A DNA stretch of 64,000 nt from the NCBI RefSeq assembly GCF_013122565.1, contig NZ_CP053258.1; one strand, written 5' to 3'. A program made the translations under genes and the position numbers. The DNA comes from Escherichia coli. GTDB taxonomy: Bacteria; Pseudomonadota; Gammaproteobacteria; Enterobacterales; Enterobacteriaceae. The notes under the pieces were generated by a model. It ran no database searches and had not been told where the DNA came from. It was given only the letters and a program-made list of their open reading frames with translations. Positions 8,821 through 45,707 of the stretch are shown here, in pieces; position 1 is the stretch's first letter; every line of letters begins with the position of its first letter.

Positions 8821-8914
8821 CGAAGTACAGGAACTGCGCAGGGAGCTTTATCAGGTTAAACAGGCAGTTAAGGGGATGCGGGACGGGATGTTTAGTGTGC
8901 TGAACGAAAGTTAA
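8729..8914 (+). pseudogene. SymE-like 3' remnant (last ~62 codons) fused to an rhs-fragment boundary
   Basis: Near-identical to 2497..2683; homology to the first copy starts abruptly at the junction with rhs-core sequence (~8728). Confidence 0.45.
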
Positions 8915-8922
8915 ATAATAAA

Positions 8923-8955
8923 AAAGCCGGGAAGGTAAATAAGCTTCCCGGCTTT
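8923..8955. terminator. bidirectional intrinsic terminator hairpin
   Basis: 12 bp perfect stem aaagccgggaag / cttcccggcttt with 9 nt loop, flanked by A-run and T-run. Confidence 0.6.
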
Positions 8956-8975
8956 CCACAACAATTTTAACTTAA

Positions 8976-9464
8976 TTAATCATAAGCATCGCCGTAATTT
9001 TCATATTTCCAATAAATATATTTACCACCTGAGCTATATAATTTATGCAATAATTCTGTAAAAGTCATTGCAATAATTGGACAACTACCTACAACGCCAT
9101 GTATCTCATAATTGCTATCATAACAGCGTCCATTTCTTTCTGTAGAAAAATCAATGGATAAATAATCATTATTATCGGTCCTGCAAATTAAGTACCATGA
9201 AGATGATATATCATCCTCACATGGCTCACCAACTATAAATTTATTTGCCTGTAATATTTCATTATTTTTCAAAATAGTGAAGGAGATTTCCTGCTCTTCA
9301 GAGCAAAACAATTTTATTCCATTACATATTTTGTAAAAACGAACAACATCATCAGGATATTTTAAATAATCAGATGGTAATAAAGGCAAATTACCATCTG
9401 GTGGAATAACTTCACATCTGTTATCATTTTTTATCAAGTCAAGTAATTCATCAATGCCATTCAT
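8976..9464 (-). CDS. putative immunity protein (SUKH-like) for orphan rhs module 1
   Basis: 162 aa AT-rich ORF downstream of the orphan tip; LLPSDYLKY...FYKICNG pattern. Confidence 0.5.
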   Translation of the reverse strand: MNGIDELLDLIKNDNRCEVIPPDGNLPLLPSDYLKYPDDVVRFYKICNGIKLFCSEEQEISFTILKNNEILQANKFIVGEPCEDDISSSWYLICRTDNNDYLSIDFSTERNGRCYDSNYEIHGVVGSCPIIAMTFTELLHKLYSSGGKYIYWKYENYGDAYD

Positions 9465-9473
9465 ATTACCACC

Positions 9474-11517: not shown

Positions 11518-16474
<4,957 letters not shown>

Positions 16475-18735: not shown

Positions 18736-19122
18736 TTAAAATCTAGCCCCTGGTGGCCAAAAAATATAAGTAATAACTCTCCATTGCCCGTCTTTATAAT
18801 GAAACCAACATGTCAGATTCAAATCCCCCTGCAAATTCCAGAACATTTCCTTAATAGGAACATCTTGAAATTCAGGATCTGTTATGCGATAAGTTTGATT
18901 CAAGCCGATATAATACTCACCAACAAATTTATATCGTGGCCTCACGAACTCATGAGCAGGCGGCCCATATTTTTTCATAAAAAAGATGTCATTACTTCCA
19001 TCATGTATATCATTTTCTTCATAATATTTGGTGGATTGAGCAACTGCAGAAGGCTTGAAAACATTCACTGTAGTTATGTAAGTTATTGAAAGAAAAATCA
19101 CTATAATGCAGAAAAATTTCAT
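18736..19122 (-). CDS. putative secreted immunity protein for HExxH effector 1
   Basis: 128 aa with N-terminal signal peptide; paralog of 20819..21181; overlaps effector stop. Confidence 0.5.
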   Translation of the reverse strand: MKFFCIIVIFLSITYITTVNVFKPSAVAQSTKYYEENDIHDGSNDIFFMKKYGPPAHEFVRPRYKFVGEYYIGLNQTYRITDPEFQDVPIKEMFWNLQGDLNLTCWFHYKDGQWRVITYIFWPPGARF

Positions 19123-19820
19123 TTGGTTACATTCAATAAAGTAAATTTAGTTTCAGGCATTATGACATTCAACGTTATAGTTGCGTTTTTAAGGTATCGT
19201 TCCCGAAGCTCCATTCCCACATTCATCAACCCACTAATATCTCCAACATACGGAGACGAAGAATCATAATCATCATCTAAGTAACCAAGTACATGTCCGG
19301 CTTCATGAGGTATATTTACTTGCAACGTATTGTTACAGTTAATACATTTCGCTACTTTTTCCAGGTCCGCTGAATCAACATGAACCGTACTGTTTTTAAA
19401 ATCAACATATGTTCTTAAATCAGCACCAGGCAAAACCTTTGTTGCAATAACCAACCAGTCTTCATTCTGAGATGCAGAAATTATTCTTACATCAAAAGGC
19501 AAAGCTTTACCCTGAAATTTTTTAGCGAACTCAGATTCACCGGAAACAGAATAAGTTATTTTCCCATTCCATGCCTGCTGAACAGATAAATATATCGCTC
19601 GCATAAAAATAGCTTTTTCCCATATAGTCCAGTCATCTGTAACGGTATTATCCTTATACCACTCATACTTCCATCTTATCACAGCCGTAATCGAACCAGT
19701 ATTTTGATTTAATAAATACGTCCTCCTACCATCCTTATGTATAATGATATCGCCATCAATATTTGTTTTTTCATAGTATTCGGCCAGCAAACTATTCTCA
19801 TCATATTTAAGCTTGGTCAT
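19119..19820 (-). CDS. putative T6SS effector 1, HExxH zinc-metallopeptidase-like
   Basis: 233 aa, no signal peptide; HEAGHVLGYLDDDY motif; paralog of 21178..21984 (shared ALMNVGMELRERYL). Confidence 0.55.
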   Translation of the reverse strand: MTKLKYDENSLLAEYYEKTNIDGDIIIHKDGRRTYLLNQNTGSITAVIRWKYEWYKDNTVTDDWTIWEKAIFMRAIYLSVQQAWNGKITYSVSGESEFAKKFQGKALPFDVRIISASQNEDWLVIATKVLPGADLRTYVDFKNSTVHVDSADLEKVAKCINCNNTLQVNIPHEAGHVLGYLDDDYDSSSPYVGDISGLMNVGMELRERYLKNATITLNVIMPETKFTLLNVTK

Positions 19821-20032: not shown

Positions 20033-20794
20033 CTACACCTGCCAGGCGCGGGGGGGATAATTTTCCACCAGCCGTTTTTCCACCGGAAAGGAATATTCAT
20101 CCAGTACTTCATCGAGAATATCCACCACGGTTTTATTCTGGAATGCTTTGTAGTCGCTGGTATGGGTCAGCAGCTTCAGCCATGGCTCAATGCGTAATTC
20201 ATACGTTACCGAACGGCCCTCATGGCCGACCACCCTCGCCGCCGTCACCAGCCCGCTGATATACCGTTTTCCGCCACCGTCCAGTTCAATGTTGACGCAC
20301 AGGTCTTTGCCCACCATGGGCTGAAGCGGCAGGTTAGCAGCGGGGGAAACGTACCCCAGGTTCAGGGCGTCCGGCGTTTTAAGCTGTACTGTGTAGGAAA
20401 ACAGATTCCCAAGCCCTTCCGAACCATTCATGCCTGCAAACAAAAGCAGCTGCGGCGGCACCGCACTACCACTTACTGTGACGTTATGCGCCCCCGGTCC
20501 ACCGGCAGCAATCGACGCCGCCGCATCCTGAACTGCACCAGCCATATCCGATATCCCTGCTGCGGCGGCTGCGGCTTGCGCAGCAGCTACTGCGGCTTTA
20601 ACCAGACCTGACGGTTCCGGCAACGCACCAAACAGGTCCGCCGCTGCCTGTTCTACCATCTGCTCGGCTGCATCAGCGACATCGGTTGCGGCTGAACCAG
20701 GGCTTATACCACCACTTTCGCCAGCTATTGGTGGTGTGGTGATGACGGGTCCACCGTTTCCAACTGGTTTATTACCCGTAGATACAAAACTCAT
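20033..20794 (-). pseudogene. truncated vgrG 5' duplicate (first ~253 codons with identical RBS and start)
   Basis: Near-identical to 17950..18711 including the Ala-rich extension; homology ends ~20025. Confidence 0.7.
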
Positions 20795-20818
20795 GATATT
20801 TGCTCCTTTAATACCGGA

Positions 20819-21181
20819 TTAAAATTTGGATCCTGGCGGCCAATAAACTCGGGATATAACTATCCATTTACCATTTTTATAATGAAGCCAACATGTTAAA
20901 TTTAGATCTTTATTAACATTCCAAAACATCTCCTTAATAGGAACATCTTTAAATTCAGGATTATTTGAAGGGTAAGTCCGTTCTATGCCACCATAATAAA
21001 TACCTACAAAATCATGCCTTGGGTTTATAAAATAATGTTCAGGAGAACCATATTTTCTCACTAGTGAATCTTCATCATCCCCCCACTGAACATCTTTGTT
21101 ATGCATCTCACTGGCAAAAATATCTAGAGTTACAAGCAATATCAATAACGTAAAAAATAGAGCGATTTTCTTCTGGATCAT
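20819..21181 (-). CDS. putative secreted immunity protein for HExxH effector 2
   Basis: 120 aa with signal peptide; C-terminal region paralogous to 18736..19122. Confidence 0.5.
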   Translation of the reverse strand: MIQKKIALFFTLLILLVTLDIFASEMHNKDVQWGDDEDSLVRKYGSPEHYFINPRHDFVGIYYGGIERTYPSNNPEFKDVPIKEMFWNVNKDLNLTCWLHYKNGKWIVISRVYWPPGSKF

Positions 21182-21984
21182 TTTATTACACTCGCAACAG
21201 AAAACGTAGTTAAGGGATATACTAAATTCAAGTCAATACAGACACCTTCCAGGTAGCGTTCCCGAAGTTCCATCCCAACATTCATTAACGCGGCAGTATC
21301 TATTTTATATTTAGACACAGGCTTACCAAACTTATCAAGTTCATATTCATCCTCCAGATAACGAATCATATGTCCAATTTCATGAACTATATTTACCTGA
21401 TAAAAACCACATATTGACTGATTCTCTGGAGCACATTTTTCTGATAACGAAGTATCTTTAAAATAAAAATGAGCAAACCGATTTTTCCAGTTAACATAAG
21501 GCCTGCCATCATCATTACCAGGAACGGTTCTTAATACGTCTACATTCCAGTGTTCTTTTTGATGGACCGGAATCATATTTATGCTGAAAGGCAATCTTTT
21601 ACTCTTGAATTTCTCAGCAAAATCAGAGTCCCCTGAGACAGATAAAAATATCTTATCATTCCATCCATAACAGATTGCAGAAAATGATTCATATATAAAA
21701 CTAACTTCATCCAGGTATGTCCAGTTATCTCCTACATTGTTCTGATTCACCCAGTTAAATTTCCATCTCATTAATAATGCAATGTCGCCTGTATCACTAT
21801 TCAGGATATATTCGCCATGTTCTGTATTCATCCTGAGACACTTCCCATCTTCTACGGTGTCAGGGCAAAACTTATGCATGAGTTTAATAAAGAATTCATG
21901 CGATAGATTTATTTTACTCTCTCCAACAACACCATCTACATGTGTTGTGAGCGAACCAGATTTATTCCCTGAAGAAGAACTCAT
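21178..21984 (-). CDS. putative T6SS effector 2, HExxH zinc-metallopeptidase-like
   Basis: 268 aa; HEIGHMIRYLEDEY motif; paralog of 19119..19820. Confidence 0.55.
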   Translation of the reverse strand: MSSSSGNKSGSLTTHVDGVVGESKINLSHEFFIKLMHKFCPDTVEDGKCLRMNTEHGEYILNSDTGDIALLMRWKFNWVNQNNVGDNWTYLDEVSFIYESFSAICYGWNDKIFLSVSGDSDFAEKFKSKRLPFSINMIPVHQKEHWNVDVLRTVPGNDDGRPYVNWKNRFAHFYFKDTSLSEKCAPENQSICGFYQVNIVHEIGHMIRYLEDEYELDKFGKPVSKYKIDTAALMNVGMELRERYLEGVCIDLNLVYPLTTFSVASVIK

Positions 21985-22311: not shown

Positions 22312-22773
22312 CTACTCATCCGTACAACCCAGCCCCCGGCGCTGAACCACTTCACTGGCAAACGTTGCTCCGGTTTTTTTCATTATTCCCTGCTGGATTT
22401 TTTGTAACTCCGGGTATACAACCCGCTCACATTCATTTATTTCCCATATGTCACCCGTCTTAGGACTAACCGAAAACAACCCTAAATAGTCTGTTGCTCC
22501 AGCAGTCGGCGTATCATAGCCAAGACTAAAATCATAATATCCGGGATGAGGCGCATTGCCCTGACCATCCTGTAAATCTCCATCAATAAAAATCCCTTCC
22601 AGCGATAAATTATACTTTTGGTGCCTGAGTACAATAATAAGCAGTTTTTCCGCCTGTGCTTTCGTCATCCCTTCGCGGTTTATATCTGATAAATTAAATT
22701 CAGACGTATTCCCCTGAACGTAGCAAACCGCAGAGGCAAGAAGAAAAAAAACAAATATTATTTTACGGGGCAC
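22312..22773 (-). CDS. putative secreted immunity protein (Tgi-like)
   Basis: 153 aa with signal peptide; immediately downstream of and overlapping the glucosaminidase-like gene. Confidence 0.5.
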   Translation of the reverse strand: MPRKIIFVFFLLASAVCYVQGNTSEFNLSDINREGMTKAQAEKLLIIVLRHQKYNLSLEGIFIDGDLQDGQGNAPHPGYYDFSLGYDTPTAGATDYLGLFSVSPKTGDIWEINECERVVYPELQKIQQGIMKKTGATFASEVVQRRGLGCTDE

Positions 22774-23228
22774 GCCATTCTCCTTCCGACCATAATAATA
22801 ATGTCAGCAGTTTTTTTGGCATAATTATCTGTTCCGCCTGTGCTACTATCTCCAGAATTAAATCCGGCCTTTACCAGAGCATCACAGAAAGCCAAAGCAT
22901 CCTTTATGTCTCTGGCTGCATTACCATATTTTATTGCAAAAGATCGTGCACAGATTGAAAAAGACGGAAAAGTAGCCACCCGGGTTTTCTTGTTACCGTG
23001 CGGACGGATTTCGCCTGACTGAAATGATGCAGGGGCATGCAGGGAGAAATAGTTGTTATATTCCCTGGCAATACGGCCTGTACCATACTGGCTCTCCGCC
23101 GCGGCAAGCCCCAGAATATTTTCCACAGGAACATTAAGTTGTTTAGCGATTAATTCACATTCTTTCAGATGCTGCTGAACAAACCTTACTGCATTAACAT
23201 CATTACAGGCTTTGTCATAAGACCCCAT
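22758..23228 (-). CDS. putative peptidoglycan glycoside-hydrolase effector (FlgJ/GH73 glucosaminidase-like, Tge-like)
   Basis: 156 aa, no signal peptide; ILGLAAAESQYG and NNYFSL resemble the FlgJ glucosaminidase motifs. Confidence 0.55.
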   Translation of the reverse strand: MGSYDKACNDVNAVRFVQQHLKECELIAKQLNVPVENILGLAAAESQYGTGRIAREYNNYFSLHAPASFQSGEIRPHGNKKTRVATFPSFSICARSFAIKYGNAARDIKDALAFCDALVKAGFNSGDSSTGGTDNYAKKTADIIIMVGRRMACPVK

Positions 23229-27000: not shown

Positions 27001-27892
27001 CCGCCACGTTCAGCGTCAGGATCACGCCGTTGAGCGGTGCGCCGGGGCGGTGTTTACGCAGCAGTCCCAGAAACCCGTGCCACTCCCCGGCGTTGCGCTG
27101 GGTCGCGCTGATTTCGCCACCGTCATCGTGACGGGCATAGCGCCCGGCGGTGTCAATAAGCACTGCTTCGTTGGTAAACCACCAGTCGCAATGCAGCGTT
27201 CCGCCGCCCGGCACGGTGAGGATATGCGCGGTTTGCTCCATCTGCTCCGCCAGCGGAAACTGCAATCCGGTGTTGAGCAGTGCTGTGGTTTTACCGTCGC
27301 CGGGGCTACCGATAACCATGAACCAAGGCAGTTCGTACAGAAAACGTTTTCCTTCCAGTACGTTACGCCAGCCCGGCAGGTCTACGCGCAGCTGTTTCAG
27401 TTGCCGAATAGCGCGAGTGACAATATGGCTGACGGTGCGTAAGTCGGCTTTAATTTCCCCGGCCACCGGTACGTCTTCCCCGCGCGGATGCAGGAAACGG
27501 CGCAGCAGTTGTTCGTCCAGACGCAGCGCCCGCCACAGCCGGTACAGGCCATACAGCGCATAAGACAGAAGGATCAGGCCGATAAGCGTCAGACGCAGCC
27601 ACAGCGGCGCAAATGGATGAACATCACCGAAAGCCAGCAACGGTGAGACAAAGCCGATAACCAGGCACAGAACCGTAACGCCAATGATGCTCATAGACCA
27701 GTTAACCAGCCACAGTGCGAGGAACATCAGTAACAGAACGATGGTGACTAACCGACTTCCCACGGACGCGAGTGGATGCAGGGTGTCAAACGCGACCAGC
27801 GGCCCAATAAACCAGACCAGCAACGCCAGCATTACCAGGCCAACAATGGCCAGCGCGCGGCGGGAAAACAGCATACTGAGAAATTTTTGCAT
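24026..27892 (-). CDS. tssM: T6SS membrane-complex protein TssM (IcmF)
   Basis: 1288 aa; N-terminal transmembrane helices, Walker A GSPGDGKTT, large periplasmic domain. Confidence 0.9.
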   Translation of the reverse strand: MQKFLSMLFSRRALAIVGLVMLALLVWFIGPLVAFDTLHPLASVGSRLVTIVLLLMFLALWLVNWSMSIIGVTVLCLVIGFVSPLLAFGDVHPFAPLWLRLTLIGLILLSYALYGLYRLWRALRLDEQLLRRFLHPRGEDVPVAGEIKADLRTVSHIVTRAIRQLKQLRVDLPGWRNVLEGKRFLYELPWFMVIGSPGDGKTTALLNTGLQFPLAEQMEQTAHILTVPGGGTLHCDWWFTNEAVLIDTAGRYARHDDGGEISATQRNAGEWHGFLGLLRKHRPGAPLNGVILTLNVADLTAQSPAERLAACAALRARLAELRETLGIRFPVYLVVTKMDLLPGFTEYFHGLTSHLRAQVWGFTLPYSRRRHASDPQSLHALCSQELANLTLRLDQGLDTRLQEEYDLKSRQRLYRFPREFAALGAPLLEAIEQIFLDSKFDATQLNNTLRGVFFTSAAQAQADAVADKTGIWQRFVRAIKGKADSPSHTLPDGNRSYFLHDLLTQFIFREAHLVEPNLQWAWRYRLLRTGGHLLVLALAFWLWQGMQGSQQGNSGYLNEIASRTTQLDGDVKAYTGKPAMQPVPALLNQARALSAWPGLDPDSPPLAWRYGLYSVPPVMESVASLYDRLLDQLLLPPLVKRMEYVLSDAIARQDSKAAYDALHVYLLLNLDKDHEDKYNAAEIHAWVLNDLDNRDSVAEFGGRAAVLEHIDALFDGSRVVHSPWEKDEGLIRQARAFLDGHTSTERIYTRALASMESEAPQEFSLVRAVGADAGTVFVRTDGAPLDRGVPGIFTREGYRELFDKRLSEFVAAASADDAWVMGRENAQKKTTDIVMSQLPGQELPVTREVRRLYLAEYARRWQDFLASIHSINSAGEDGSPGLAYDLQVLRTLASPDSPLMRLSKAVVEQTTLVPPLDAQARQKQMAQRAQDRLSGNVGKAGQTAKLLQDIHPEERLEKSLVDDRFAALREVVSGRTDSGQTGGAPQLNSLLTMLNEYYTQLTIADSALAASTLPGRISAADKLQLEAAKLPAPLKNILLDLTQQGTRKINAGTGEVLNAQMEAVIGDECRDAIDGRYPFTDSPQEVSADDFNHIFASGGVLDAFWTKQLAPLADTASNPWRYKPTEGNMTLQGPDLTPFQEAKQIRSVFFNGEGGKKFSWAMQVRVVDMDPAITELVIDIDGQVLRYAHGPVRPLKVNWPGPRNGSMAEITASPRIRQDTSTLLTNGPWALFHLLDAGNAQETAVRGTQQVEYSFDGRRVVLEITAGRDFDPVNRGLLQRFACPERAL

Positions 27893-28179
27893 TATTGTTC
27901 AGAACTCCATGCGATAATCAGTAATAGCAAAATGCCGCAAGCTGAAAAAATCCTTCCAGTACGGGCTACTGAAAGAAAATAAAGAGCAATCTGAACAATT
28001 ATCAAAATAAAATAAATCAACATTTTGATTATTTCTCTGTTCCCATTTCCCTGAGGCAACGTTGTCATTGAAGGATCCATATCCTGCATCCATTGATACT
28101 CATTCCCGGAAAAAAGCATGATGATGATCAGACCCATAATGAATAACAACCATCCTGATATCTGAATTATTCTTCTCAC
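27892..28179 (-). CDS. small polytopic membrane protein, unknown function
   Basis: 95 aa with about three hydrophobic helices; between the SLT-like gene and tssM. Confidence 0.4.
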   Translation of the reverse strand: MRRIIQISGWLLFIMGLIIIMLFSGNEYQWMQDMDPSMTTLPQGNGNREIIKMLIYFILIIVQIALYFLSVARTGRIFSACGILLLLIIAWSSEQ

Positions 28180-28187: not shown

Positions 28188-28871
28188 CTAATGGGCGATG
28201 AGTAAATTAGAGAAATGCAACCAGTTGTTGACAATAAAATTGCCATAGCTGGTATCTTCCTTTATTTTCTCCAGAGTAAGCGACATACCCCGGTTATAAC
28301 GGGCACCAATAATTCTTATCTGCTCTTTCGTCAGGTGTGGTAAGGAGGACTGAAATTCATCTCTTTCAGCTAATTTATAAATATGTCTGGCCACAAGTTG
28401 AATATTAAAAATATCATGCTGGAGGCAATTTGCCAGTTCACGCAATTGAGAGGTATCCATTTTTGACTCATCAAGCCCAAGCGTTCTGGCTGCGGTTCGC
28501 AATTGCATACTCACTGCACCAAAAGATGTTTTTTCTGGTCTCGAAGTTATTGTGATATGTTCATCAATCCACTCAGGCCCACTCCAGTCAATAGTCCGAG
28601 CATCAAATGCCAGCATATCTACAATACTGGGATCCCCCCCGACTTCTATCCAACACACACCTGCCAGTAAAGGTGCTGGCAAATTATATGTATTGGCAGC
28701 CGACGTTATCAGAAGATGGTTATGTTTTACCCAGCCATCTTTGAAATAACGCCCAAACGGTACACCACCGCCCCATTTTTTTGGCGCTAATTTCCAGAAA
28801 AGAAATTCGGTCACGCCCCATACCGGTGAATGATTCGATGCATTGCAGTCCAGATTATTCATTTTTCTCAC
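28188..28871 (-). CDS. lytic-transglycosylase (SLT)-like protein, T6SS-associated
   Basis: 227 aa, no signal peptide; LAGVCWIEVGGDP and FGAVSMQLRTAARTLGLD resemble the SLT Glu and GLMQ motifs. Confidence 0.45.
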   Translation of the reverse strand: MRKMNNLDCNASNHSPVWGVTEFLFWKLAPKKWGGGVPFGRYFKDGWVKHNHLLITSAANTYNLPAPLLAGVCWIEVGGDPSIVDMLAFDARTIDWSGPEWIDEHITITSRPEKTSFGAVSMQLRTAARTLGLDESKMDTSQLRELANCLQHDIFNIQLVARHIYKLAERDEFQSSLPHLTKEQIRIIGARYNRGMSLTLEKIKEDTSYGNFIVNNWLHFSNLLIAH

Positions 28872-30184
28872 TCCACCACCAGAATTTCCACCCGACGGTT
28901 CTGCGCCCGTCCGGTTTTAGTGCTGTTATCGGCCACCGGTACGGTATCTCCTTTCCCGACGACCCGAATCCGGCTGACCGGAACACCACCGGACGTCAGC
29001 AGTGAAGCCACTTCCGTCGCCCGTTTTTCCGACAACACCTGGTTGGAGGGGAATTCAGCGGAGTGGATCGGCTGACTGTCGGTGTGTCCGGTCACCGTCA
29101 CCGCGCCGCCCACACGCGCAATCTCTCGCGCGGCCTTATCAATCACCGGGCTTAGCGCATCATTCACGGTTTTCTGCCCTGGTATAAACATCGTATCGCC
29201 ACGAAAGATTACACGGCTGTGATGGTCATCTTCCTCCACCGTCAGCAGGCCACGGGCGATTTCGTTCGCCAGCAGGATTTTCAGCCGCAGTTTATGCACT
29301 GGAACGGGTGGCGGCGGTAGATTTTTACCAATGGCGTCGATACGCTGTTGTACGGTTTCGGTAGCGAGGTTCATCCGGTGGCTGTAAAGGCCAAACAGCG
29401 TCAGCATCACCAGCAGAGCGATTCCGGCGCTCAGCCAGACCGGCACCCGGCGCATCCGCCGCATTCGCCCACTGACGGCACCGGCAAAACCCGGCGAGAG
29501 CATCGGCGTGATTGGATCGCGACGCTGGACCAGTTGAGTCAGCAGTTGCTGACGGATATCGTCCAGTTGCTTACGCCCGTCAGGCCGTACACTGTAGCGG
29601 CCTTCAAAACCCAGCCCCAGAATGTGGTAGATGATCTCCAGTACATCGTTGTGCTCCTGGAAGCTTGCGGCCAGACGCCCAATTATCTGAAACAGCTTGA
29701 TGCCGCCTTCACTTTCGCCATGAAAAGTGACCAGCAGGCTTTTTCCAGCCCAGACACCGCGCCGTCCCCAGGTGGTGTTGTTGGCGGCTTCGTCCAGCGA
29801 AGTGCATAGGCAATAACGCACAGCCAGCACATGTTCGCGGCGAAGGTTTGCTTGATCGCATAACGTCTGATATCGACGAACTTCACGCTCCAGTAGGGCG
29901 CGATAATGTTCGACAAAACCAGGGGATAGTTCACGGGGCATTTGCGCCAGCGCGCATAACAGAGGGCTGGCCGCCGCCAGGAGAGGATTCACAGCACCAG
30001 TGATCTCAGCCAAACGGAGCTTCAAATCTGGCCCGTCTTCAACCACCACCTTTATATCTTCCCTGCGAAGGCTGTCCTGGATGAGCGTATCGTAACCTTC
30101 ATTATCAGGCGACCTTGTTCCCTTCATTGAAGTCTGTAATGGCAGAGTATTCACCGCAGGTTGCGTCAGAATATCGTCGGTCAT
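28868..30184 (-). CDS. tssL: TssL (DotU) with C-terminal OmpA-like peptidoglycan-binding extension
   Basis: 438 aa; central transmembrane helix; C-terminus ...NRRVEILVVE typical of OmpA/MotB domains. Confidence 0.85.
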   Translation of the reverse strand: MTDDILTQPAVNTLPLQTSMKGTRSPDNEGYDTLIQDSLRREDIKVVVEDGPDLKLRLAEITGAVNPLLAAASPLLCALAQMPRELSPGFVEHYRALLEREVRRYQTLCDQANLRREHVLAVRYCLCTSLDEAANNTTWGRRGVWAGKSLLVTFHGESEGGIKLFQIIGRLAASFQEHNDVLEIIYHILGLGFEGRYSVRPDGRKQLDDIRQQLLTQLVQRRDPITPMLSPGFAGAVSGRMRRMRRVPVWLSAGIALLVMLTLFGLYSHRMNLATETVQQRIDAIGKNLPPPPVPVHKLRLKILLANEIARGLLTVEEDDHHSRVIFRGDTMFIPGQKTVNDALSPVIDKAAREIARVGGAVTVTGHTDSQPIHSAEFPSNQVLSEKRATEVASLLTSGGVPVSRIRVVGKGDTVPVADNSTKTGRAQNRRVEILVVE

Positions 30185-31527: not shown

Positions 31528-32061
31528 TTACTCATCCCGTTCTTTAATCACTATGGCGCTTTGCTCTATGCCAGCATCCAGTTCGACTTTTTTCTTCGGC
31601 ATAAAGCGGCTGTACCAACTTTTTTCCGGTGGCTCAGGAATTTTATATGTAGCCCGCCAGACCGATTTTCCCAGATTGCGGTATCCGGCGAGGATCCCCA
31701 GCGTGGTGGTTTCCTTATTGAGGGCGCGGCGCAATTTTTTCTCCTCGCCCGGACGCAGGATAAAGCTGTCGCGGTGGAGTAAATCATCAGCAAGAACAGC
31801 CTTGTCATTGTCCTGAAGGGACCACCAGTCCGCCGCCGTGAAAGCTGCATCATTTTTCAGTTCATAAACGCGTATCTCTATGGGCGCGGCTTTTTTCTGA
31901 TTGTCAGGATTCACCTTATCGGAAGCCTTAATCACCAGATCGAGTCTTTGTGACATCAGGTCCGGCACGTCGTCGCTGTCAATGCTGCACCCGGAAAGCA
32001 GGCAGACAAAAGACAAAGCTACCGCACATAACCACCCACCGGGGTTACGCCATTTATTCAC
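31528..32061 (-). CDS. tssJ: T6SS outer-membrane lipoprotein TssJ (start moved to GTG at 32061)
   Basis: Lipobox LLSGCS after a signal peptide; GTG with AAGGAA RBS 8 nt upstream; the longer ORF would overlap hcp. Confidence 0.75.
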   Translation of the reverse strand: MNKWRNPGGWLCAVALSFVCLLSGCSIDSDDVPDLMSQRLDLVIKASDKVNPDNQKKAAPIEIRVYELKNDAAFTAADWWSLQDNDKAVLADDLLHRDSFILRPGEEKKLRRALNKETTTLGILAGYRNLGKSVWRATYKIPEPPEKSWYSRFMPKKKVELDAGIEQSAIVIKERDE

Positions 32062-32087
32062 TGTAATTTCCTTTAAACTCAAATAAT

Positions 32088-32120
32088 AAAAACCGGCCTG
32101 GCTATTTGCCGGGCCGGAAA
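32088..32120 (-). terminator. hairpin plus U-run downstream of hcp (terminator or attenuator)
   Basis: ccggcc ... ggccgg stem followed by ttttt on the transcribed strand, between hcp stop and tssJ start. Confidence 0.4.
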
Positions 32121-32128
32121 AGTACTGC

Positions 32129-32614
32129 TTAAATTTCTTTATTGGCCTTGAAGTCGTAGCCTGCGGTGATGGTGCCGCCGCTGCCACCTTGCTGGTTCTG
32201 CACCACGTATTCCTGCTTCACGGTGCTGAAAGAGAGTTCGACCATTTCACGGGAGGCAATCTCCCCTTCCTTGCTGCCACTGGGAGATACAACAGCCACA
32301 ATAAGGTCAGTGAAGGTATATTTGAGATATTCCAGCGGATTGCCGCCTGCTTTACGCATGGTCAGCACAGCTTTCGGAATGTGTTTGCCGGAGGCGCAGT
32401 ATTTGAACAGGTTAGGACTGGCACGATCGATATAGTGGTCAAAGTCCAGGTTGGTCACGGAGACTTTACCGGATCCCAGGCCACTGCCCGCGTGCATGGT
32501 GGACTCCTGGTGAATATTCCAGCGCCAGCTCAGCACCTCAATTTCATTTTTATGTTTGTCATCCATTGACTCGCCGTCAATGCCGTCAATTTTCAGAAAA
32601 ATGTCATAAGCCAT
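32129..32614 (-). CDS. hcp: Hcp tube protein (TssD)
   Basis: 161 aa from the second ATG (RBS spacing favors it); MAYDIFLKIDGIDGES, typical Hcp. Confidence 0.9.
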   Translation of the reverse strand: MAYDIFLKIDGIDGESMDDKHKNEIEVLSWRWNIHQESTMHAGSGLGSGKVSVTNLDFDHYIDRASPNLFKYCASGKHIPKAVLTMRKAGGNPLEYLKYTFTDLIVAVVSPSGSKEGEIASREMVELSFSTVKQEYVVQNQQGGSGGTITAGYDFKANKEI

Positions 32615-32831
32615 TTTCATTTCCTTATTAAGAATTACTTAAAATAATCTCTGGTTTATCTTCGCATCTGAATTCAGGTAAACCATAGCCGTACAGAACC
32701 TCCTCTCCTTAATTTAAGAAGAACAGAAGGCTCTATATTTTTCAGAACTTAAGTACCAGACAGAAAATCATTCACGAAATAAATGTTTATCAATTATATA
32801 TAGTTAACTGATAACATATTCTACTGGACTT

Positions 32832-33287
32832 TCATTCACATATTAAAGATACGGGTTTCTCCCTTGGTGGTTCATCGAAATAAAGAGTCTTACAGGAATG
32901 AGTATTTACAGGTACTGGCTGAGATAACCAGACCAGTCCGTAGCTATAAATACAGGAAAACCAGTATCTGTCGCTCTCTTTCGCTGTCGCGCCTTCTGTA
33001 TTCCATATCAACCATGTTTCCTGTTTTATTTTTTTCATCTCTGGCTTCTGATCGCCAAAATTTTCCGGTTTATCCTGTGTGACACTAATATGCGTTAACC
33101 ACTGACGAGGCTCCTGCCGTGGGGAAACTCTCCATTGCGGCTGGACAAATGATTTCAGAACCGCGGTGTAAGGCTCCGTTTCAACAAAAACAGGACAAGT
33201 AACTTCCCATGCCGACACATTTTGTGCATAAAACAAGGCAACACCAGAAAGAAGCAATACAGGAAAGCGCATCATCGTACCTTCCAT
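32832..33287 (-). CDS. putative secreted immunity protein (Tai-like)
   Basis: 151 aa with signal peptide, directly downstream of the amidase-like gene. Confidence 0.5.
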   Translation of the reverse strand: MEGTMMRFPVLLLSGVALFYAQNVSAWEVTCPVFVETEPYTAVLKSFVQPQWRVSPRQEPRQWLTHISVTQDKPENFGDQKPEMKKIKQETWLIWNTEGATAKESDRYWFSCIYSYGLVWLSQPVPVNTHSCKTLYFDEPPREKPVSLICE

Positions 33288-33670
33288 TATTCAATTACAT
33301 AAAATGCTTCAGCATTACTGCTGGCGCTGGGATACGAACCGTCAGAGTTTGCTCCGCCTTTCGGTCTGAGTTGATGTTTTTCGATTCTGATCTGCGTTCT
33401 CCACTGATCCATAACCCAGATCCCTCGTTTATCCTGCCCCAGATAGAATGCAGCATGATTACCTGAACTCCTGCCAGGCCATCGCCCATTAAAAAAAGTG
33501 GCAATAGCGGTACCTTTTGGAATGGTGGTGTCCCCCCACACTTTCTTACCCGCACGCCATGTTGCTGTGGAGCCAAGATGTGCATACCTTTTAACCAGAG
33601 TTACACACTCACCATCCCCCACTAATGGCTGCCCCTGTAATAAATCCACTGATTCATAAACTCGCGACAT
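33287..33670 (-). CDS. putative Cys/His papain-fold peptidoglycan amidase effector (Tae-like)
   Basis: 127 aa; candidate catalytic Cys (GECVTLVKRY) and His (NHAAFY) about 60 residues apart; sits between tssC and hcp where SPI-6-type islands carry tae/tai. Confidence 0.5.
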   Translation of the reverse strand: MSRVYESVDLLQGQPLVGDGECVTLVKRYAHLGSTATWRAGKKVWGDTTIPKGTAIATFFNGRWPGRSSGNHAAFYLGQDKRGIWVMDQWRTQIRIEKHQLRPKGGANSDGSYPSASSNAEAFYVIE

Positions 33671-33709
33671 GTTATTGCCCTCTGATGTTACGCAGAATCC
33701 TTAGATGTA

Positions 33710-35224
33710 TCAGGCATTACCCTGTTTTACCGACGGCAGTTTTGTGACCAGACGCAGTGATCCTGTTAACCCTTCAAGCTGAAAATGCGGGCGCAGGAAG
33801 AATTTGGCATCGTAATAACCCGGATTACCTTCCACCTCTTCCACCACCACTTCGGCTGCTGCTAGTGGGCGACGAGCTTTGGTTTCCTGTGAGGAGTTCA
33901 CCGGATCGGCATCGACGTAGTTCATGATCCACTCATTGAGCCAGCGCTGCATATCTTCACGCTCTTTGAACGAGCCGATCTTGTCGCGCACGATACATTT
34001 GAGGAAGTGCGCAAACCGTGAACAGGCGAAAAGATATGGCAAACGAGCTGAGAGATTAGCGTTGGCCGTAGCGTCCGGATCGTAATATTCCTGCGGTTTT
34101 TGCAGCGACTGTGCGCCAATAAAGGCGGCATAATCGGAGTTTTTGCGGTGGATCAGCGGGATAAAACCGTTTTTGGCCAGTTCAGCTTCACGGCGATCAG
34201 AGATGGCAATTTCCGTCGGGCATTTCATATCCACGCCGCCGTCATCGGTCGGGAAGGTATGACAGGGTAGATTTTCCACCGCGCCACCAGATTCAACACC
34301 ACGGATCAACGTACACCAACCGTAATGTTTGAAAGAACGGTTGATATTTACACCCATTGCATAGGCGGCATTGCTCCAGACATATTTGCTGTGATCTGCG
34401 CCATCCGCATCTTCTTCAAAATCAAACTCATCTACAGGGTTTGTTTTCGCACCATAAGGCAAACGGGAGAGGAAACGTGGCATCGTCAGGCCAATGTAGC
34501 GAGAATCCTCACTTTTCCGCAGCGAGTTCCACGGTGCGTATTCGAGGTTTTGGGTCACAATTTTGGTCAAATCACGCGGGTTAGCCAGTTCCTGCCAGGA
34601 GTCCATCTGCAACACTGACGGAGAGGCCCCGGCAATAAACGGCGCATGGGCTGAGGCTGCTACTTTGGCAATGGAACCGAGCAGATCCACATCCGGTGGC
34701 GTGTGATCAAAATAATAATCCGCAATAATACAACCGTAAGGTTCTCCACCTAACTGTCCATATTCAGCTTCATACAGCTTTTTGAACATGGGGCTTTGAT
34801 CCCAGGCTATCCCTTTGTAACGTTTCATATTTTTCCGCAATTCATCCTTCGAAAGGTTCATAAAGCGGATTTTTAATTTTTCATCGGTTTCAGTGTTGTA
34901 AACCAAATGTTCCATCCCACGCCAGGAGGACTCCAGTTTCTGAAATTCCGGATGACTCAGGATGAGTTTGATCTGCTCGGTTAATTTGAAATCAATCTGC
35001 TCAATAATCGCAGCAATACTTTTATAAGCGTCGTCACTGACGGTGACGGTATTTGTCAGAGCCTGTTGGGCCAGCGTCTGAACTGCTGCCTCAACAGCCT
35101 TTGCTGCCTGAGGTGTCTTGGGACGGAAGGCTTTATCCAGGAGCGAATCAAATTCAGTGTCCTGATAGGCAGTGGTTTGCGCAGCAGAGAGATCGCCAGT
35201 CGCCAGAAGAGTATCGTTTACCAT
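33710..35224 (-). CDS. tssC: T6SS sheath large subunit TssC (VipB)
   Basis: 504 aa; conserved TssC sequence. Confidence 0.92.
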   Translation of the reverse strand: MVNDTLLATGDLSAAQTTAYQDTEFDSLLDKAFRPKTPQAAKAVEAAVQTLAQQALTNTVTVSDDAYKSIAAIIEQIDFKLTEQIKLILSHPEFQKLESSWRGMEHLVYNTETDEKLKIRFMNLSKDELRKNMKRYKGIAWDQSPMFKKLYEAEYGQLGGEPYGCIIADYYFDHTPPDVDLLGSIAKVAASAHAPFIAGASPSVLQMDSWQELANPRDLTKIVTQNLEYAPWNSLRKSEDSRYIGLTMPRFLSRLPYGAKTNPVDEFDFEEDADGADHSKYVWSNAAYAMGVNINRSFKHYGWCTLIRGVESGGAVENLPCHTFPTDDGGVDMKCPTEIAISDRREAELAKNGFIPLIHRKNSDYAAFIGAQSLQKPQEYYDPDATANANLSARLPYLFACSRFAHFLKCIVRDKIGSFKEREDMQRWLNEWIMNYVDADPVNSSQETKARRPLAAAEVVVEEVEGNPGYYDAKFFLRPHFQLEGLTGSLRLVTKLPSVKQGNA

Positions 35225-35248
35225 GAAAGTTCCTTAATAAAATCGCAG

Positions 35249-35794
35249 TTAGTCTGCTGTTCCCGTTTCACCTGATAAGACACTTTCCTGTTGAGCGACA
35301 GGTTTTGGCGCACTGGCCAGAGCTTTCAGTAACGTAGGGTCTTGTAATAGTTTGTTGATAAGATTTTCTGCTCCCGCTTTACCATCCATATACGTTTGTA
35401 GGTTGGCAAGCTGAGTACGCGCTTCCAGCAGCTGGTTCAGGGCATCCACCTTACGGGCAATCTGCGCAGGCGAAAAATCGTCCATATTCTCCAGCGTGAT
35501 ATCGACCATTAACTGCCCTTCGCCCGTCAGCGTATTGGGGACAGCAAACGCCACGCGCGGCGCAATGGCTTTCATCCGCTCGTTGAAGTTATCGATATCA
35601 ATATCAAGGAATTTACGATCGGTGACCGGTGGCAGCTCTTCGCGAGGTTTACCGGCCAGATCGGCCAGCACCGCCATGACAAACGGCAGTTCGATTTTTT
35701 TCTCGGAGCCGTAAATCTCAACGTCATACTCAATCTGCACGCGGGGCGCACGGTTGCGGGCAATAAACTTCTGCGCGCTATTGTTGATAGCCAT
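35249..35794 (-). CDS. tssB: T6SS sheath small subunit TssB (VipA)
   Basis: 181 aa; ...APRVQIEYDVEIYGSEKKIELPFVMAVLADL typical of TssB. Confidence 0.92.
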   Translation of the reverse strand: MAINNSAQKFIARNRAPRVQIEYDVEIYGSEKKIELPFVMAVLADLAGKPREELPPVTDRKFLDIDIDNFNERMKAIAPRVAFAVPNTLTGEGQLMVDITLENMDDFSPAQIARKVDALNQLLEARTQLANLQTYMDGKAGAENLINKLLQDPTLLKALASAPKPVAQQESVLSGETGTAD

Positions 35795-35855
35795 AATCCT
35801 TCATTTCCTTATCAGTCAGCCGACGACCACCTGGGGAGTGGCCCGACGGTACAGT

Positions 35856-36146
35856 TTAAAAATCATACGCAGAGAGTATTTTTATAATCTCTTTGTTTTC
35901 TTTGTACTTTTCCCGCAGCACAGGGAGTGATTTCTTCGCTGGAGGACACCAGGTATCAACCCCCTTTTCGATGTCTCTTTTATCCTTCTCTGGTAAAGAA
36001 CTGTCCCATTCACCAGCAAGATGCTGGCACATTTCCGCATTACTCAGAAAATGCTGCACATCCTGTGGTAAAGACGGTTCCCCCTGAGCACAGAAAGCGA
36101 ACATCATTAACAGGAATGTCCACAACACCGGATAACGAAATGTCAT
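35856..36146 (-). CDS. small secreted protein of unknown function
   Basis: 96 aa with signal peptide; between clpV and tssB. Confidence 0.4.
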   Translation of the reverse strand: MTFRYPVLWTFLLMMFAFCAQGEPSLPQDVQHFLSNAEMCQHLAGEWDSSLPEKDKRDIEKGVDTWCPPAKKSLPVLREKYKENKEIIKILSAYDF

Positions 36147-36364
36147 ACTTAATGTCCATCAATTGACCAGTGCATGAGATATGCTCTAGCGGGAGGGCGA
36201 TATGTTGCAGAGATACTGACCCTTGCACGCGCATTACCAAGCGCGCGCAAAAAATTATCTACCGATACACGAAAAGTCCCCTGCAAATCATTGGTGGAAG
36301 AACTTCCAGGAAAGCGACTGACCCACAGCGCGCCACTTAATTCTTTTTCCATAAGGATGCTCCA

Positions 36365-38998
36365 TTAATCCGTTTCAAAAATAATCTGTTCATCCTCATC
36401 AACACGAATGCGGATTTGCGTGATGGCCGTTTTCTCTGTCATCGCCTGCAACCAGTAACGGGACAGTTGTGGGAGGATATGTTGTTCGATATAGCCGATG
36501 AGCAAACGAGCGCCGGTTTCGTGCATCGGGCAGCGCGACACAATATGCGTAATCAATTCATCGCCATACACCAGTGAAACGCCATGCTGCTCCGCCATCC
36601 GATCCATCAATCTGCCAAGATGCAGGCGGGCAATAACACCACGCGCGGTCTCATCCAGCGGTAAATAAGGAATAACCGTCACACGCCCCAGGAAAGCCGC
36701 CGGGAAGTGTTTACGTAACTCCGGCATTAACGCCTCTTTTAATCCTGCCGAATCAGGCATCAGCGCCGGATCCTCACAGAGCTGGCTGATAAGTTCCGCT
36801 CCCGCGTTAGTAGTCAACAACAGCGTGGTATTTTTGAAATCGATGTGGACACCTTCGCCATCTTCCATCGCCCCCTTATCAAACACCTGGAAGAACAGCT
36901 CGTGGACGTCGTGATGGGCTTTTTCAATTTCATCCAGCAATACCACGCTCCAGGGATGGCGGCGTACCGCTTCTGTCAACACGCCGCCTTCGCCATAACC
37001 CACGTAGCCGGGCGGTGCGCCTTTCAGCGTGGAAACGGTGTGGGACTCCTGAAACTCGCTCATGTTGATGGTGATCAGGTTCTGCTCACCGCCATAGATA
37101 GCCTCTGCCAGCGCCAGAGCGGTCTCAGTCTTGCCAACACCGGACGGCCCGGCCAGCAAAAAGACGCCCACAGGCTTACGCGGGTCACCTAAACCCGCCC
37201 GCGCGGTCTGGATACGCTCGCCAATCTGCGCCAGCGCGTCCCTCTGCCCGGTAACACGCTGCGCCAGACGGGCGGGCAGTTCCAGGATCTGACTGGCCTC
37301 ATCTTTCACCATGCGTCCGGCGGGAATACCGGTCCAGTCGGAGACAATCTCTGCCACCACGGTTGCACTGACTTCCGGGTACACGACGGGGTTTTCACCC
37401 TGCCAACCTCTTAATGCCGTTTCTGCCTGTTGTAGAGTGATTTCGTCGCGCTCGCCGGGCTCTGCGCCGCGTTGCTCGTGTAAACTGCGAACCAACTCCA
37501 GTTCCTGCTGCCACCGCGCTTCGGTGTCAGAAAGATCGGCATTCAGCGATATAATCCGCGCCGCCAGTACATCGCCCCGCTCCGAGCGGATACCCATTTT
37601 TTCCTGCTTTAATAACAACTCCTGCTCCAGTTCGGCAGCGTTGAGCTGCTGGCGCAGATACTGGACTCTCGCAGGCGGGGTATGCAGCGACAGCGCTACA
37701 CGGGCCGCCGCCGTATCCAGCAGGCTGATGGCCTTATCCGGTAGTTGCCGGGACGGAATGTACCGGTGAGAAAGCTGTACCGCGGCGCGCACGGCCTCAT
37801 CAAGGATCAGGACGTCATGGTGTTTTTCAAGCGTGGTGACTAACCCGCGTACCATCTCAACAGCCGCAACCTCTTCTGGCTCAGCAACCTGCAATACCTG
37901 AAAACGCCGGGTCAGCGCCGGATCCTTTTCGATATGGCGTTTGTACTCGCTCCAGGTAGTTGCGCCGATGGTGCGCAGGGTTCCACGCGCCAGCGCCGGT
38001 TTCAGCAGGTTGGCAGCATCCCCCGTACCGGATGTACCACCAGCGCCCACCAGCGTGTGAACTTCATCAACAAAAAGGATCACCGGCTGCGGCGAGCGCG
38101 CGGCCTCTTCCAACAACGCTTTCAGGCGGGATTCAAATTCACCCTTCATGGACGCCCCTGCCAGCAGCGCTCCAACATCCAGTGACAGCAACCGCACGTT
38201 ACGCAGTGAAGGCGGTACTTCCCCCCCGGCAATCGCCAGCGCGAATCCTTCCACCACTGCCGTTTTCCCGACTCCCGCCTCGCCGGTCAGCAGCGGGTTG
38301 TTCTGGCGACGGCGCAGCAGAATATCCGTCATAGTACGGATCTCGTGTTCGCGACCGGTGACCGGATCGATATTGCCTTCACGGGCCAGCGCAGTCATGT
38401 CCTGGCAGTATTTCGCCAGCGCGGATTTGCTTCCGGTTGATTCGCCGGCAAAGACCTGGCTAGCTTCCCCCGGTACTGCAGAATTTAAATCCGAGCCGTC
38501 ATAAGGCATTTCTGTTAATTCAGGAGATGAAGTGATTAAAGACGGAAGAATATCTAATAGTTCATCTACCGGTAGCTCTGCCAATGGCGCACAAATATTT
38601 TTTAACACCCGACACAATTCTGGCGTGGTTAACCAGGCAAGTAATAACCATCCACTACGAATTTTTTGATCGCCAAAGCGGATACTTGCCAACATCCAGG
38701 CTTTTTCAACAGAAAGATCGATATGATGGGAAAAATCGTTAATTACACTCGCTCCGGCAGGCAATATATTCAATTGCTGAATTAACGCCTTCTCAACATC
38801 AGCAGATGTTATTTGATAATGTCGAAGCACATTGTGAATGTCATTCTCTGGTTGTTGTATTAACTGATGCAACCAATGTGTCAGTTCGACATAAGGATTA
38901 GCGCGTAATTTACAGAACGTTGTCGCAGATTCCAAAGATCTAAACAAAGATTTGGTTAGCTTTCCATATAGTGCACTGCGCGAAACAGGAGTGTCCAT
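36365..38998 (-). CDS. clpV: T6SS AAA+ ATPase ClpV (TssH)
   Basis: 877 aa; two Walker A motifs (GEAGVGKTAVVEG, GPSGVGKTETA); Clp N-domain. Confidence 0.92.
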   Translation of the reverse strand: MDTPVSRSALYGKLTKSLFRSLESATTFCKLRANPYVELTHWLHQLIQQPENDIHNVLRHYQITSADVEKALIQQLNILPAGASVINDFSHHIDLSVEKAWMLASIRFGDQKIRSGWLLLAWLTTPELCRVLKNICAPLAELPVDELLDILPSLITSSPELTEMPYDGSDLNSAVPGEASQVFAGESTGSKSALAKYCQDMTALAREGNIDPVTGREHEIRTMTDILLRRRQNNPLLTGEAGVGKTAVVEGFALAIAGGEVPPSLRNVRLLSLDVGALLAGASMKGEFESRLKALLEEAARSPQPVILFVDEVHTLVGAGGTSGTGDAANLLKPALARGTLRTIGATTWSEYKRHIEKDPALTRRFQVLQVAEPEEVAAVEMVRGLVTTLEKHHDVLILDEAVRAAVQLSHRYIPSRQLPDKAISLLDTAAARVALSLHTPPARVQYLRQQLNAAELEQELLLKQEKMGIRSERGDVLAARIISLNADLSDTEARWQQELELVRSLHEQRGAEPGERDEITLQQAETALRGWQGENPVVYPEVSATVVAEIVSDWTGIPAGRMVKDEASQILELPARLAQRVTGQRDALAQIGERIQTARAGLGDPRKPVGVFLLAGPSGVGKTETALALAEAIYGGEQNLITINMSEFQESHTVSTLKGAPPGYVGYGEGGVLTEAVRRHPWSVVLLDEIEKAHHDVHELFFQVFDKGAMEDGEGVHIDFKNTTLLLTTNAGAELISQLCEDPALMPDSAGLKEALMPELRKHFPAAFLGRVTVIPYLPLDETARGVIARLHLGRLMDRMAEQHGVSLVYGDELITHIVSRCPMHETGARLLIGYIEQHILPQLSRYWLQAMTEKTAITQIRIRVDEDEQIIFETD

Positions 38999-39330: not shown

Positions 39331-40245
39331 ATGAAACAAAATATTACGTGGGGACTCCAAAAAAAACAGGCGCACGGGATCGCCGATAACACAATTTACG
39401 CGACTGAAGGAACACAAATTATCTTTACCGTTACCTCTCCCTGGATTCCTGTTTTTGAGGTGAATGATGATGTAAAGATTGCCCTCAGTCTGACCCGCCA
39501 CGAAGAAGCATGGTGGATTATTAATCAGTCTACCGAATATTGCTGTACGGTAAACGACCAGATTGTGGAACCTCATCACCGTATGCGTCTGAATGAAGGC
39601 GATCAGATAGAATGGGGGTTATCTTCATGGTGCCTTGTGCATGGCACCCCATCATCTCCGGACATGAGCGCAGTAAAAACAATATCGCAGACTGCCATCA
39701 CGTCGGAAACAATAACCGAATATCTGGATCTGGATTGGTTCAGGCAGCAGCATCTGACATCACAAAATCCATTCGATATCATTCCTGTTCATGGAGCCTC
39801 CTCCACCGGAGAAGATGCGGAAAAAGAAAATGCCCTGACCCGACTTTATCAGGAATACCGCGAGGCGTTGTTATCTCCCGAAGAAGATCTTCATCGCCAT
39901 GCTGATCCTTTTCCCTTTAACGAAGAGCCCTCCTCGCAGGATCTGGATTCATTGCGTGACCTGGTCACCGAAGCCGATACATTGCAGGATATGGTCACTG
40001 GTGGGTTAAGCATTGACGCTATTCTCAATGTACTGGATGCCACCGGCGAAGATGAAACTATCTGGCCTGTCGAAAAGACTCCCCCTGATATCCTGCATTT
40101 ACTTTCCCCGGAATACGCCCCGGAAACAGCGCATAACACCGTACTGCCAGATCTGACACGCAAAGAGCACCGCATTATCGGCATTGACAGCCATTACCGG
40201 ATAAACCCGGCACAACACGGAGATATCTCTCATGACAAACAATAA
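39331..40245 (+). CDS. FHA-domain T6SS-associated protein (TagH-like)
   Basis: 304 aa; N-terminal FHA-like signature (SLTRHEEAWWIIN, STEYCCTVNDQ, RLNEGDQIEWG); first gene of the + operon. Confidence 0.55.
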   Translation: MKQNITWGLQKKQAHGIADNTIYATEGTQIIFTVTSPWIPVFEVNDDVKIALSLTRHEEAWWIINQSTEYCCTVNDQIVEPHHRMRLNEGDQIEWGLSSWCLVHGTPSSPDMSAVKTISQTAITSETITEYLDLDWFRQQHLTSQNPFDIIPVHGASSTGEDAEKENALTRLYQEYREALLSPEEDLHRHADPFPFNEEPSSQDLDSLRDLVTEADTLQDMVTGGLSIDAILNVLDATGEDETIWPVEKTPPDILHLLSPEYAPETAHNTVLPDLTRKEHRIIGIDSHYRINPAQHGDISHDKQ

Positions 40246-41062
40246 CGTGCTACCGGCTACCCTGTCGGCGCTGCTGCGGGATTATTCCGTGGCGGAGGGC
40301 ATTCAGATGGCAGAGCAGCAGGTCAGGATGCACCCAGCGCAGGCCTCCCGCCGCCACAGCCTGTTTCAGTTACTGTGCGTGGCAGGCGACTGGTCGCGGG
40401 CGCTGCAACAGATCCAGCTGTGCGACCGGATGGACGCAAATTATACCCGCGAAGCGCAGGTATTTGGCGAGCTGATCCGCTGTGAGATATACCGCCACGC
40501 CTGCTTTCAGGGGGAACAGCGGCCCGGTTTTATTCTCCCGCCGCCCGCCTGGATGGAGGATCTACTGGCTGCTCTCGCCTGTAACGCCCGTAGTGAAGCG
40601 CAGGAAGCTGATGTCCACCGCAGCCGCGCGCTTGAGGCCATAACAGACACTTCTGGGCAGTGGAATGGCGGCGCGTTTGACTGGATTAGCGACAGCGACT
40701 CCCGTACCGGTCCGGTACTCGAACTGATCGCAGGCGGGGTGTATATCTGGCTGCCATTCTCACAAATTCGCTCACTGAAATCGCCGCAGCCTGCGCATCT
40801 GACCGATTTGCTCTGGAAACCCGTCAACGTCACCCTGCACAACGGTGACACGCACAGTGCCTGGCTGTTTCCCCGCTACAGCGGCTCTGAAAAGGCCGCC
40901 GACTCCCTGCGTCTGTGCCGGGAAACGGTCTGGCAGGACGGGCCGGGAGAGACGCTGGTACAGGCGCTGGGTCAGAGGGTGTGGCTCACCAGCCAGGGCG
41001 ATATCAGCCTGCTGGATTTGTCCACCTGTACCTTTAATACCTCCGAAGGAAGCGACGCGTGA
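40232..41062 (+). CDS. tagJ: T6SS accessory protein TagJ (ImpE family)
   Basis: 276 aa; position between FHA gene and tssE; ImpE-like. Confidence 0.65.
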   Translation: MTNNNVLPATLSALLRDYSVAEGIQMAEQQVRMHPAQASRRHSLFQLLCVAGDWSRALQQIQLCDRMDANYTREAQVFGELIRCEIYRHACFQGEQRPGFILPPPAWMEDLLAALACNARSEAQEADVHRSRALEAITDTSGQWNGGAFDWISDSDSRTGPVLELIAGGVYIWLPFSQIRSLKSPQPAHLTDLLWKPVNVTLHNGDTHSAWLFPRYSGSEKAADSLRLCRETVWQDGPGETLVQALGQRVWLTSQGDISLLDLSTCTFNTSEGSDA

Positions 41063-45630: not shown

Positions 45631-45707
45631 TGGCGGAACGGACGGGACTCGAACCCGCGACCCCCTGCGTGACAGGCAGGTATTCTAACCGACTGAACTA
45701 CCGCTCC
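45631..45707 (-). tRNA. aspV: tRNA-Asp (GUC)
   Basis: Exact 77 nt match to the E. coli tRNA-Asp sequence including CCA (reverse complement). Confidence 0.97.

Follow-up and report, generated by a model that had tools for sequence, protein, structure and literature searches.

We propose that two adjoining minus-strand genes, lying between tssC and hcp in Escherichia coli (NCBI RefSeq assembly GCF_013122565.1, contig NZ_CP053258.1, from which a stretch of 64,000 nucleotides, here called the window, was analysed), form the Tae2/Tai2 effector-immunity module of a type VI secretion system (T6SS), encoded by an island that resembles Salmonella pathogenicity island 6 (SPI-6); we put the probability of this reading at a little under nine in ten. 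The initial annotation had described the two open reading frames (ORFs) as an amidase-like effector pair, and both exist on the minus strand with the coordinates it had given: the effector gene, tae2, at 33287..33670 (127 amino acids, aa; contained in the six-frame ORF list) and the immunity gene, tai2, at 32832..33275 (147 aa). They are not chance ORFs, since the product of each scores well over the cutoff of a curated protein family. The family, which had been left open, is Tae2/Tai2, and is neither Tae4 nor a new one.

The identity of the effector is supported by sequence and by predicted structure. It scores 161.6 bits against the NCBIfam model BPSL0067_fam (cutoff 27), covering profile positions 1-115 of 115; BPSL0067 itself is presumably the orthologue, in B. 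pseudomallei, of the B. thailandensis Tae2. A search of PDB sequences returned one strong relative, 6WIN, the S. Typhi crystal structure of ‘Type 6 secretion amidase effector 2’ (phmmer E=1.5e-33, residues 4-127). An AlphaFold2 model, made with 27 homologues (predicted local distance difference test, pLDDT, 95.3; predicted template modelling score, pTM, 0.90), superposes on the same entry with a root-mean-square deviation (rmsd) of 1.2 Å over 127 residues and 47% identity (Foldseek template modelling score, TM, 0.94, E=2.4e-14), its next structural neighbours being the CHAP and NlpC/P60 papain-like hydrolases. The earlier suggestion of a papain-fold, Tae-type peptidoglycan amidase has thus gained a specific family.

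The putative active site follows the same pattern. Both of the candidate motifs picked out previously, GECVTLVKRY and NHAAFY, are present, and contain C22 (the only Cys in the protein) and H72 respectively; the spacing between these residues is, however, 50 and not about 61, as first stated. Across the 27 homologues (40-83% identity) C22, H72 and Q89 are invariant, with D88, G18, G53, T54 and W90 nearly so, and the motifs CV.L, GTAIATF, NHAAF and MDQW are conserved throughout the Tae2 family alignment. The 6WIN chain has C23 and H73 at the positions aligned with C22 and H72, and in the model C22 heads a helix (22-30) and H72 a strand (73-80), which is the canonical papain-like arrangement. By analogy with the family, C22 is the predicted nucleophile and H72 the predicted general base, with either D88 or Q89 (of MDQW) as a candidate third residue, judging from conservation and position; in the tick homologue Dae2, the Cys-to-Ala mutant C43A has served as a catalytic-dead control (bioRxiv 10.1101/2020.04.10.036376). 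The nearly invariant Gly at position 18 is retained in the window (codon 33617-33619); the representative of its 99%-identical RefSeq cluster, from another E. coli, has Glu there, and this is the sole difference between the two proteins.

Taken together, full-length similarity, a papain-like fold, the Cys/His pair, linkage to a T6SS and an arrangement as a bicistron with an immunity gene, along with an N-terminus (MSRVYESVDLLQGQ) that has no hydrophobic segment and hence no export signal, identify the 127-aa protein as a predicted Tae2-family papain-like cysteine hydrolase.

The initial annotation had also noted a signal peptide on the product of the next gene, as suits a periplasmic immunity partner, and this too holds: the Sec signal peptide of around 22 residues (MMRFPVLLLSGVALFYAQNVSA, followed by WEV) combines a basic residue, a hydrophobic core reaching 2.3 on the Kyte-Doolittle scale and the cleavage motif VSA, and it precedes an all-beta domain. 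The protein matches NCBIfam STY0301_fam over profile positions 1-137 of 137 (52.7 bits; cutoff 22), which makes the gene, on sequence grounds, a Tai2-family (STY0301) immunity gene whose product is predicted to be periplasmic. This family has few members and evolves quickly: when 1.84 billion representatives were searched exhaustively with HMMER, no more than 18 homologues reached E ≤ 0.001, and in their alignment the cleavage-site Ala, four Cys and a few Trp, Pro and Tyr residues are invariant. AlphaFold predicts an all-beta structure (pLDDT 85.9) in which the N-terminal 20 residues have low confidence, as a signal peptide would give; a PDB sequence search with Tai2 gave no match, and the predicted fold has no detectable solved structural relative.

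Where Tai2 begins merits a comment, as the ORF can be extended to 32832-33287 (151 aa from the first ATG), with an ATG at 33287 overlapping the stop codon of tae2. Translation probably begins at 33275, where an ATG lies 12 bases past that stop codon, because the RefSeq homologue starts there and a GGAAGG ribosome-binding site lies just upstream. On the other side of the pair, and directly upstream of it in the direction of transcription, is tssC (33710..35224, minus strand; 504-aa ORF), encoding the large sheath subunit, assigned from E. coli LHM10-1; at its 98.3%-identical locus, RefSeq names the genes as tssB, tssC, BPSL0067 family, STY0301 family, hcp, tssJKLM, tssH, tssEFG and tssA, together with a tRNA-Asp. 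The inner-tube gene hcp (32129..32620, minus strand) is likewise annotated at the homologous locus, and its product is almost identical to S. Typhimurium Hcp (PDB 5XHH; E=1.7e-103); the ORF is 163 aa long, with a real start that is probably M3 (161 aa). A promoter and terminator scan of 32000-36500 found that, on the minus strand, nothing resembling a terminator separates tssC, tae2, tai2 and hcp from one another, and for this reason co-transcription of the pair with the sheath genes is plausible from the sequence. Every core T6SS gene of the window is present as a full-length, uninterrupted ORF, and the complete island adjoins a tRNA-Asp (45631-45707); SPI-6 is also inserted at tRNA-Asp (aspV).

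The position of the pair had been likened to the slot for tae/tai genes in SPI-6-type islands, and this slot is a documented one, namely variable region 1 (VR1), downstream of tssC (PMC10469887). The Salmonella SPI-6 layout comprises VR1, VR2 and VR3, with VR1 holding either Tae2/Tai2 or Tae4/Tai4 (PMC10469887, PMC12994826), and the layout of the island in the window matches it. The nearest characterised counterpart is therefore the S. Typhi Tae2/Tai2 pair, which shares with ours the invariant Cys/His, a downstream immunity gene of the STY0301 family and the same slot, adjoining hcp in an SPI-6-type island at tRNA-Asp. The two differ in host (Salmonella as opposed to E. coli, in which the window's allele is rare), in an identity of only ~47% between effectors, and in an aligned span that is 6 residues shorter in ours, with three short gaps.

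Two other identities were considered and rejected. Tae4/Tai4, the usual occupant of the slot, was set aside as no Tae4/Tai4 model in NCBIfam matched either protein at E up to 1, and searching PDB sequences at E up to 10 returned no Tae4 structure. Pairs of this kind (S. Typhimurium STM0277/STM0278 type) do share the slot, the presumed Hcp route and a gene order in which a small papain-like amidase is followed by a periplasmic immunity protein, but their Tae family is a separate one, in which no sequence match to the window's pair is detectable, and their immunity protein is of an unrelated family. A housekeeping NlpC/P60 hydrolase is rejected in turn, since the effector lacks a signal peptide, comes with an immunity partner and is encoded within a T6SS. 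CHAP and NlpC/P60 hydrolases such as the LysK-type endolysin CHAP domain, MepS and LytE likewise act as amidases or endopeptidases on peptidoglycan peptide stems; they are, however, only 10-17% identical to the effector, for which Pfam gives neither a CHAP nor an NLPC_P60 match, and unlike them it is a lone 127-aa domain, devoid of a signal peptide or cell-wall-binding module, that would be delivered by a T6SS and is paired with an immunity gene.

Tae families are NlpC/P60-type amidases defined by their cleavage specificity, which sequence family tracks (PMC3695027), and the specificity of Tae2 is established for members of the family (PMC10469887, PMC3695027). The papain-like amidase fold of S. 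Typhi Tae2 most resembles the LysK CHAP domain, and the enzyme hydrolyses sacculi of Gram-negative bacteria only (bioRxiv 10.1101/2020.04.10.036376); it has also been treated as Hcp cargo (bioRxiv 10.64898/2026.06.15.732508). By analogy with these characterised relatives, the most likely mechanism is one in which Tae2 would be made in the cytoplasm and loaded into the ring of the Hcp encoded next door, such that contraction of the sheath would drive it into the periplasm of a Gram-negative neighbour. Once inside, C22 and H72 would cut peptide stems apart by hydrolysing the amide bond of their mDAP–D-Ala (4-3) cross-link (mDAP, meso-diaminopimelic acid), and the loss of cross-links would weaken the sacculus and lead to lysis. 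Tai2 would be exported to the periplasm of the producer and, once disulfide-bonded, would bind and block any Tae2 arriving from sister cells, so that producer and kin would be protected.

Several points weigh against this reading, in whole or in part. The effector has no match in a Pfam scan even at E=10; the family has no Pfam model, which is why the initial annotation left it unassigned. Over the aligned span it is 6 residues shorter than 6WIN, with gaps after W90-I93 and near residue 103. The scan of 32000-36500 yielded fewer promoter and terminator sites than shuffled sequence, and none above chance. Loading into Hcp is suggested by gene adjacency, small size and an AlphaFold3-based preprint, and effector activity, secretion and neutralisation are predictions.

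Of the rival explanations, that which survives best is a silent relic, in which the genes are intact whilst the T6SS or the cassette is unexpressed or non-functional in this strain. The absence of a promoter signal above chance fits such a state, as do a 360-bp deletion in a neighbouring effector-like gene of the window and, in LHM10-1, the annotation of two genes from this island (tssL and tagJ) as pseudogenes carrying internal stops. In the window, by contrast, both of these genes are uninterrupted (438 aa and 276 aa) and all core genes are full-length, and in tae2 and tai2, which are themselves intact, ribosome-binding sites and catalytic residues are preserved; on balance we regard a relic as unlikely. 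Slightly less probable again is an enzyme of the Tae2 family, delivered in the same way, with another cleavage specificity: either the gamma-D-Glu–mDAP bond, as for Tae1 and Tae4, or a broadened range like that of tick Dae2. In Tae2/Dae2, the substrate range is reported to depend on loops L1-L3, which surround the catalytic channel (bioRxiv 10.1101/2020.04.10.036376) and, with the loops of the window's effector being shorter, as seen in its gaps against 6WIN, and its identity to S. Typhi Tae2 only 47%, the bond or substrate cleaved could differ. Set against this are the correspondence of sequence family and specificity among Tae proteins (PMC3695027), a predicted backbone nearly identical to that of 6WIN, and the retention of all four core motifs across the family. 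That the papain-fold enzyme attacks a protein (as would a deamidase or protease effector) and not peptidoglycan is very improbable, as family members have been shown to hydrolyse sacculi (bioRxiv 10.1101/2020.04.10.036376) and the partner has a signal peptide, so that neutralisation, and with it the target, belongs in the periplasm.

Accepting a Tae2/Tai2 module, what the E. coli data add is a view of its slot as a polymorphic one. The tssC-hcp region of this T6SS is carried by 116 of 5426 complete E. coli genomes. That the window is itself E. coli chromosome is seen in its housekeeping genes dnaQ, rnhA, gloB and mltD, which have matches at 95-99% in all 5424 genomes. Only 4 of the 5426 carry the Tae2/Tai2 allele of the window (~99% identity), making it the rarest occupied state of the slot. 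Among the 116 with the region, 11 have a second Tae2/Tai2 allele, at least two have an empty slot, and most of the remainder have Tae4/Tai4. The second allele (for example that of strain 06-00048, WP_042102253.1 and WP_071906047.1) has the same families, slot and gene order, with flanks at 94-95% nucleotide identity, but its effector is only 53%, and its immunity protein only 47%, identical to those of the window; given flanks so nearly the same, this degree of divergence makes cross-immunity between the two alleles doubtful, as far as sequence can indicate.

Alignment of the four states defines the exchangeable cassette at 32786..33709, homology being lost at both ends: on one side it stops exactly at the tssC stop codon, and on the other ~165 bp upstream of the hcp start, within the spacer. 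G+C content is 47.7% for tae2, 43.6% for tai2 and 30% for the spacer, compared with 49-51% for the flanks. These edges, along with the slight AT-richness, fit replacement of the cassette by recombination in conserved flanks, which matches what has been suggested for Salmonella VR1. A broader idea, which we offer tentatively and would rate as somewhat less than an even bet, is that the slot acts as a polymorphic ‘compatibility’ locus of mutually non-cross-protective cassettes, in which the rare allele lets its few carriers kill most other E. coli with the same T6SS, and that Tai2 may inhibit its effector by way of an all-beta, doubly disulfide-bonded fold with no solved relative.

The association of the genes extends to other taxa. 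In two enterobacterial contigs with homologues of the effector the order is tssC-tae2-(146-148 aa gene)-hcp, and Massilia sp. GCA_031995545.1 has an orphan hcp-tae2-(144 aa gene) module (locus 4492-5818) set among housekeeping genes (RNase G, catalase), on a stretch with no T6SS core genes. The third gene of this module has the signal peptide and four-Cys pattern of the window's Tai2, and the module thereby shows that an Hcp-Tae2-Tai2 unit travels as a block outside the enterobacteria.

We would not overstate the novelty of the pair, which is a rare allele of a well-known effector-immunity family in a well-known genomic position, with only the slot polymorphism in E. coli and a Tai2 lacking a structural relative going beyond the routine. 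Most of the gain is in annotation, with the RefSeq names ‘BPSL0067 family protein’ and ‘STY0301 family protein’ giving way to Tae2 peptidoglycan cross-link amidase and Tai2 immunity protein. As an exchange point with at least four states, the slot does offer a natural system for studying cross-immunity of divergent Tae2/Tai2 alleles and strain-level competition in the gut; a structure of the Tae2-Tai2 complex would also be new, Tai2 itself having no solved structure.

The remainder of the island holds further candidates. PADLOC defence models matched neither protein of the pair, nor the small ORFs that neighbour it. Between tssH/clpV and tssB, a 67-aa ORF (36149-36352, minus strand) derives, by an in-frame deletion of 360 bp, from a gene for a 187-aa protein of which E. 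coli M18 has an intact copy (WP_001040751.1); the deletion brought one copy of a 9-bp direct repeat, CACTGGTCA, together with a second (‘...LMHWS/.../IDGH’). Neither Pfam nor PDB has a match for the 187-aa protein, and a frameshifted copy of its gene is labelled ‘peptidoglycan-binding domain-containing protein’ by RefSeq. After the 67-aa ORF comes an intact 96-aa gene (35856-36146, minus strand) encoding a signal peptide and conserved Cys, and the two look like an effector that has decayed and an immunity gene kept as an orphan.

A 156-aa protein encoded downstream of tssM and tagF (22758-23228, minus strand) strongly matches chain A of PDB 4KT3 (E=9.3e-49), which we take to be the Tge2-Tgi2 complex; RefSeq labels its homologue ‘glucosaminidase domain-containing protein’. 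The overlapping 153-aa ORF (22312-22773, minus strand) is probably a Tgi2-type immunity gene, and the two would be a second peptidoglycan-targeting pair of the island, with a Tge2-family glycoside hydrolase effector, in the VR2 position.

Two ORFs that are ‘hypothetical’ in RefSeq lie between tssL and tssM, one of 227 aa (28188-28871, minus strand), with no Pfam, NCBIfam or PADLOC match, and one of 95 aa that is hydrophobic (27892-28179, minus strand). This position may be another variable effector/immunity slot, because a related metagenomic island has Rap1a and Tlde1-domain genes there.

In LHM10-1, which is the closest complete genome and has the same Tae2/Tai2 allele, tssL (locus 8769-10085) and tagJ (20132-20962) are pseudogenes with internal stops, whereas tssL (28868-30184) and tagJ (40232-41062) of the window are uninterrupted ORFs; the island is therefore decaying in some carriers.

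A vgrG gene at 16498-18711 is followed downstream by a full-length PAAR-Rhs protein of 1379 aa (11871-16010, minus strand) and, past this, by four successively shorter Rhs fragments (9474-11312, 7360-8820, 4699-6315 and 3170-4297, all minus strand), each of which keeps the RHS-associated core and has a different C-terminal tip, with small ORFs, likely immunity genes, in between; the series is a classic array of orphan Rhs toxin cassettes. A 253-aa ORF at 20033-20794 (minus strand), the C-terminal half of which matches only the N-terminal ~130 positions of VgrG models, is a vgrG fragment, and its location between two sets of small unannotated ORFs, at 18736-19820 and 20819-21984, suggests past duplication or rearrangement of a vgrG-effector module.
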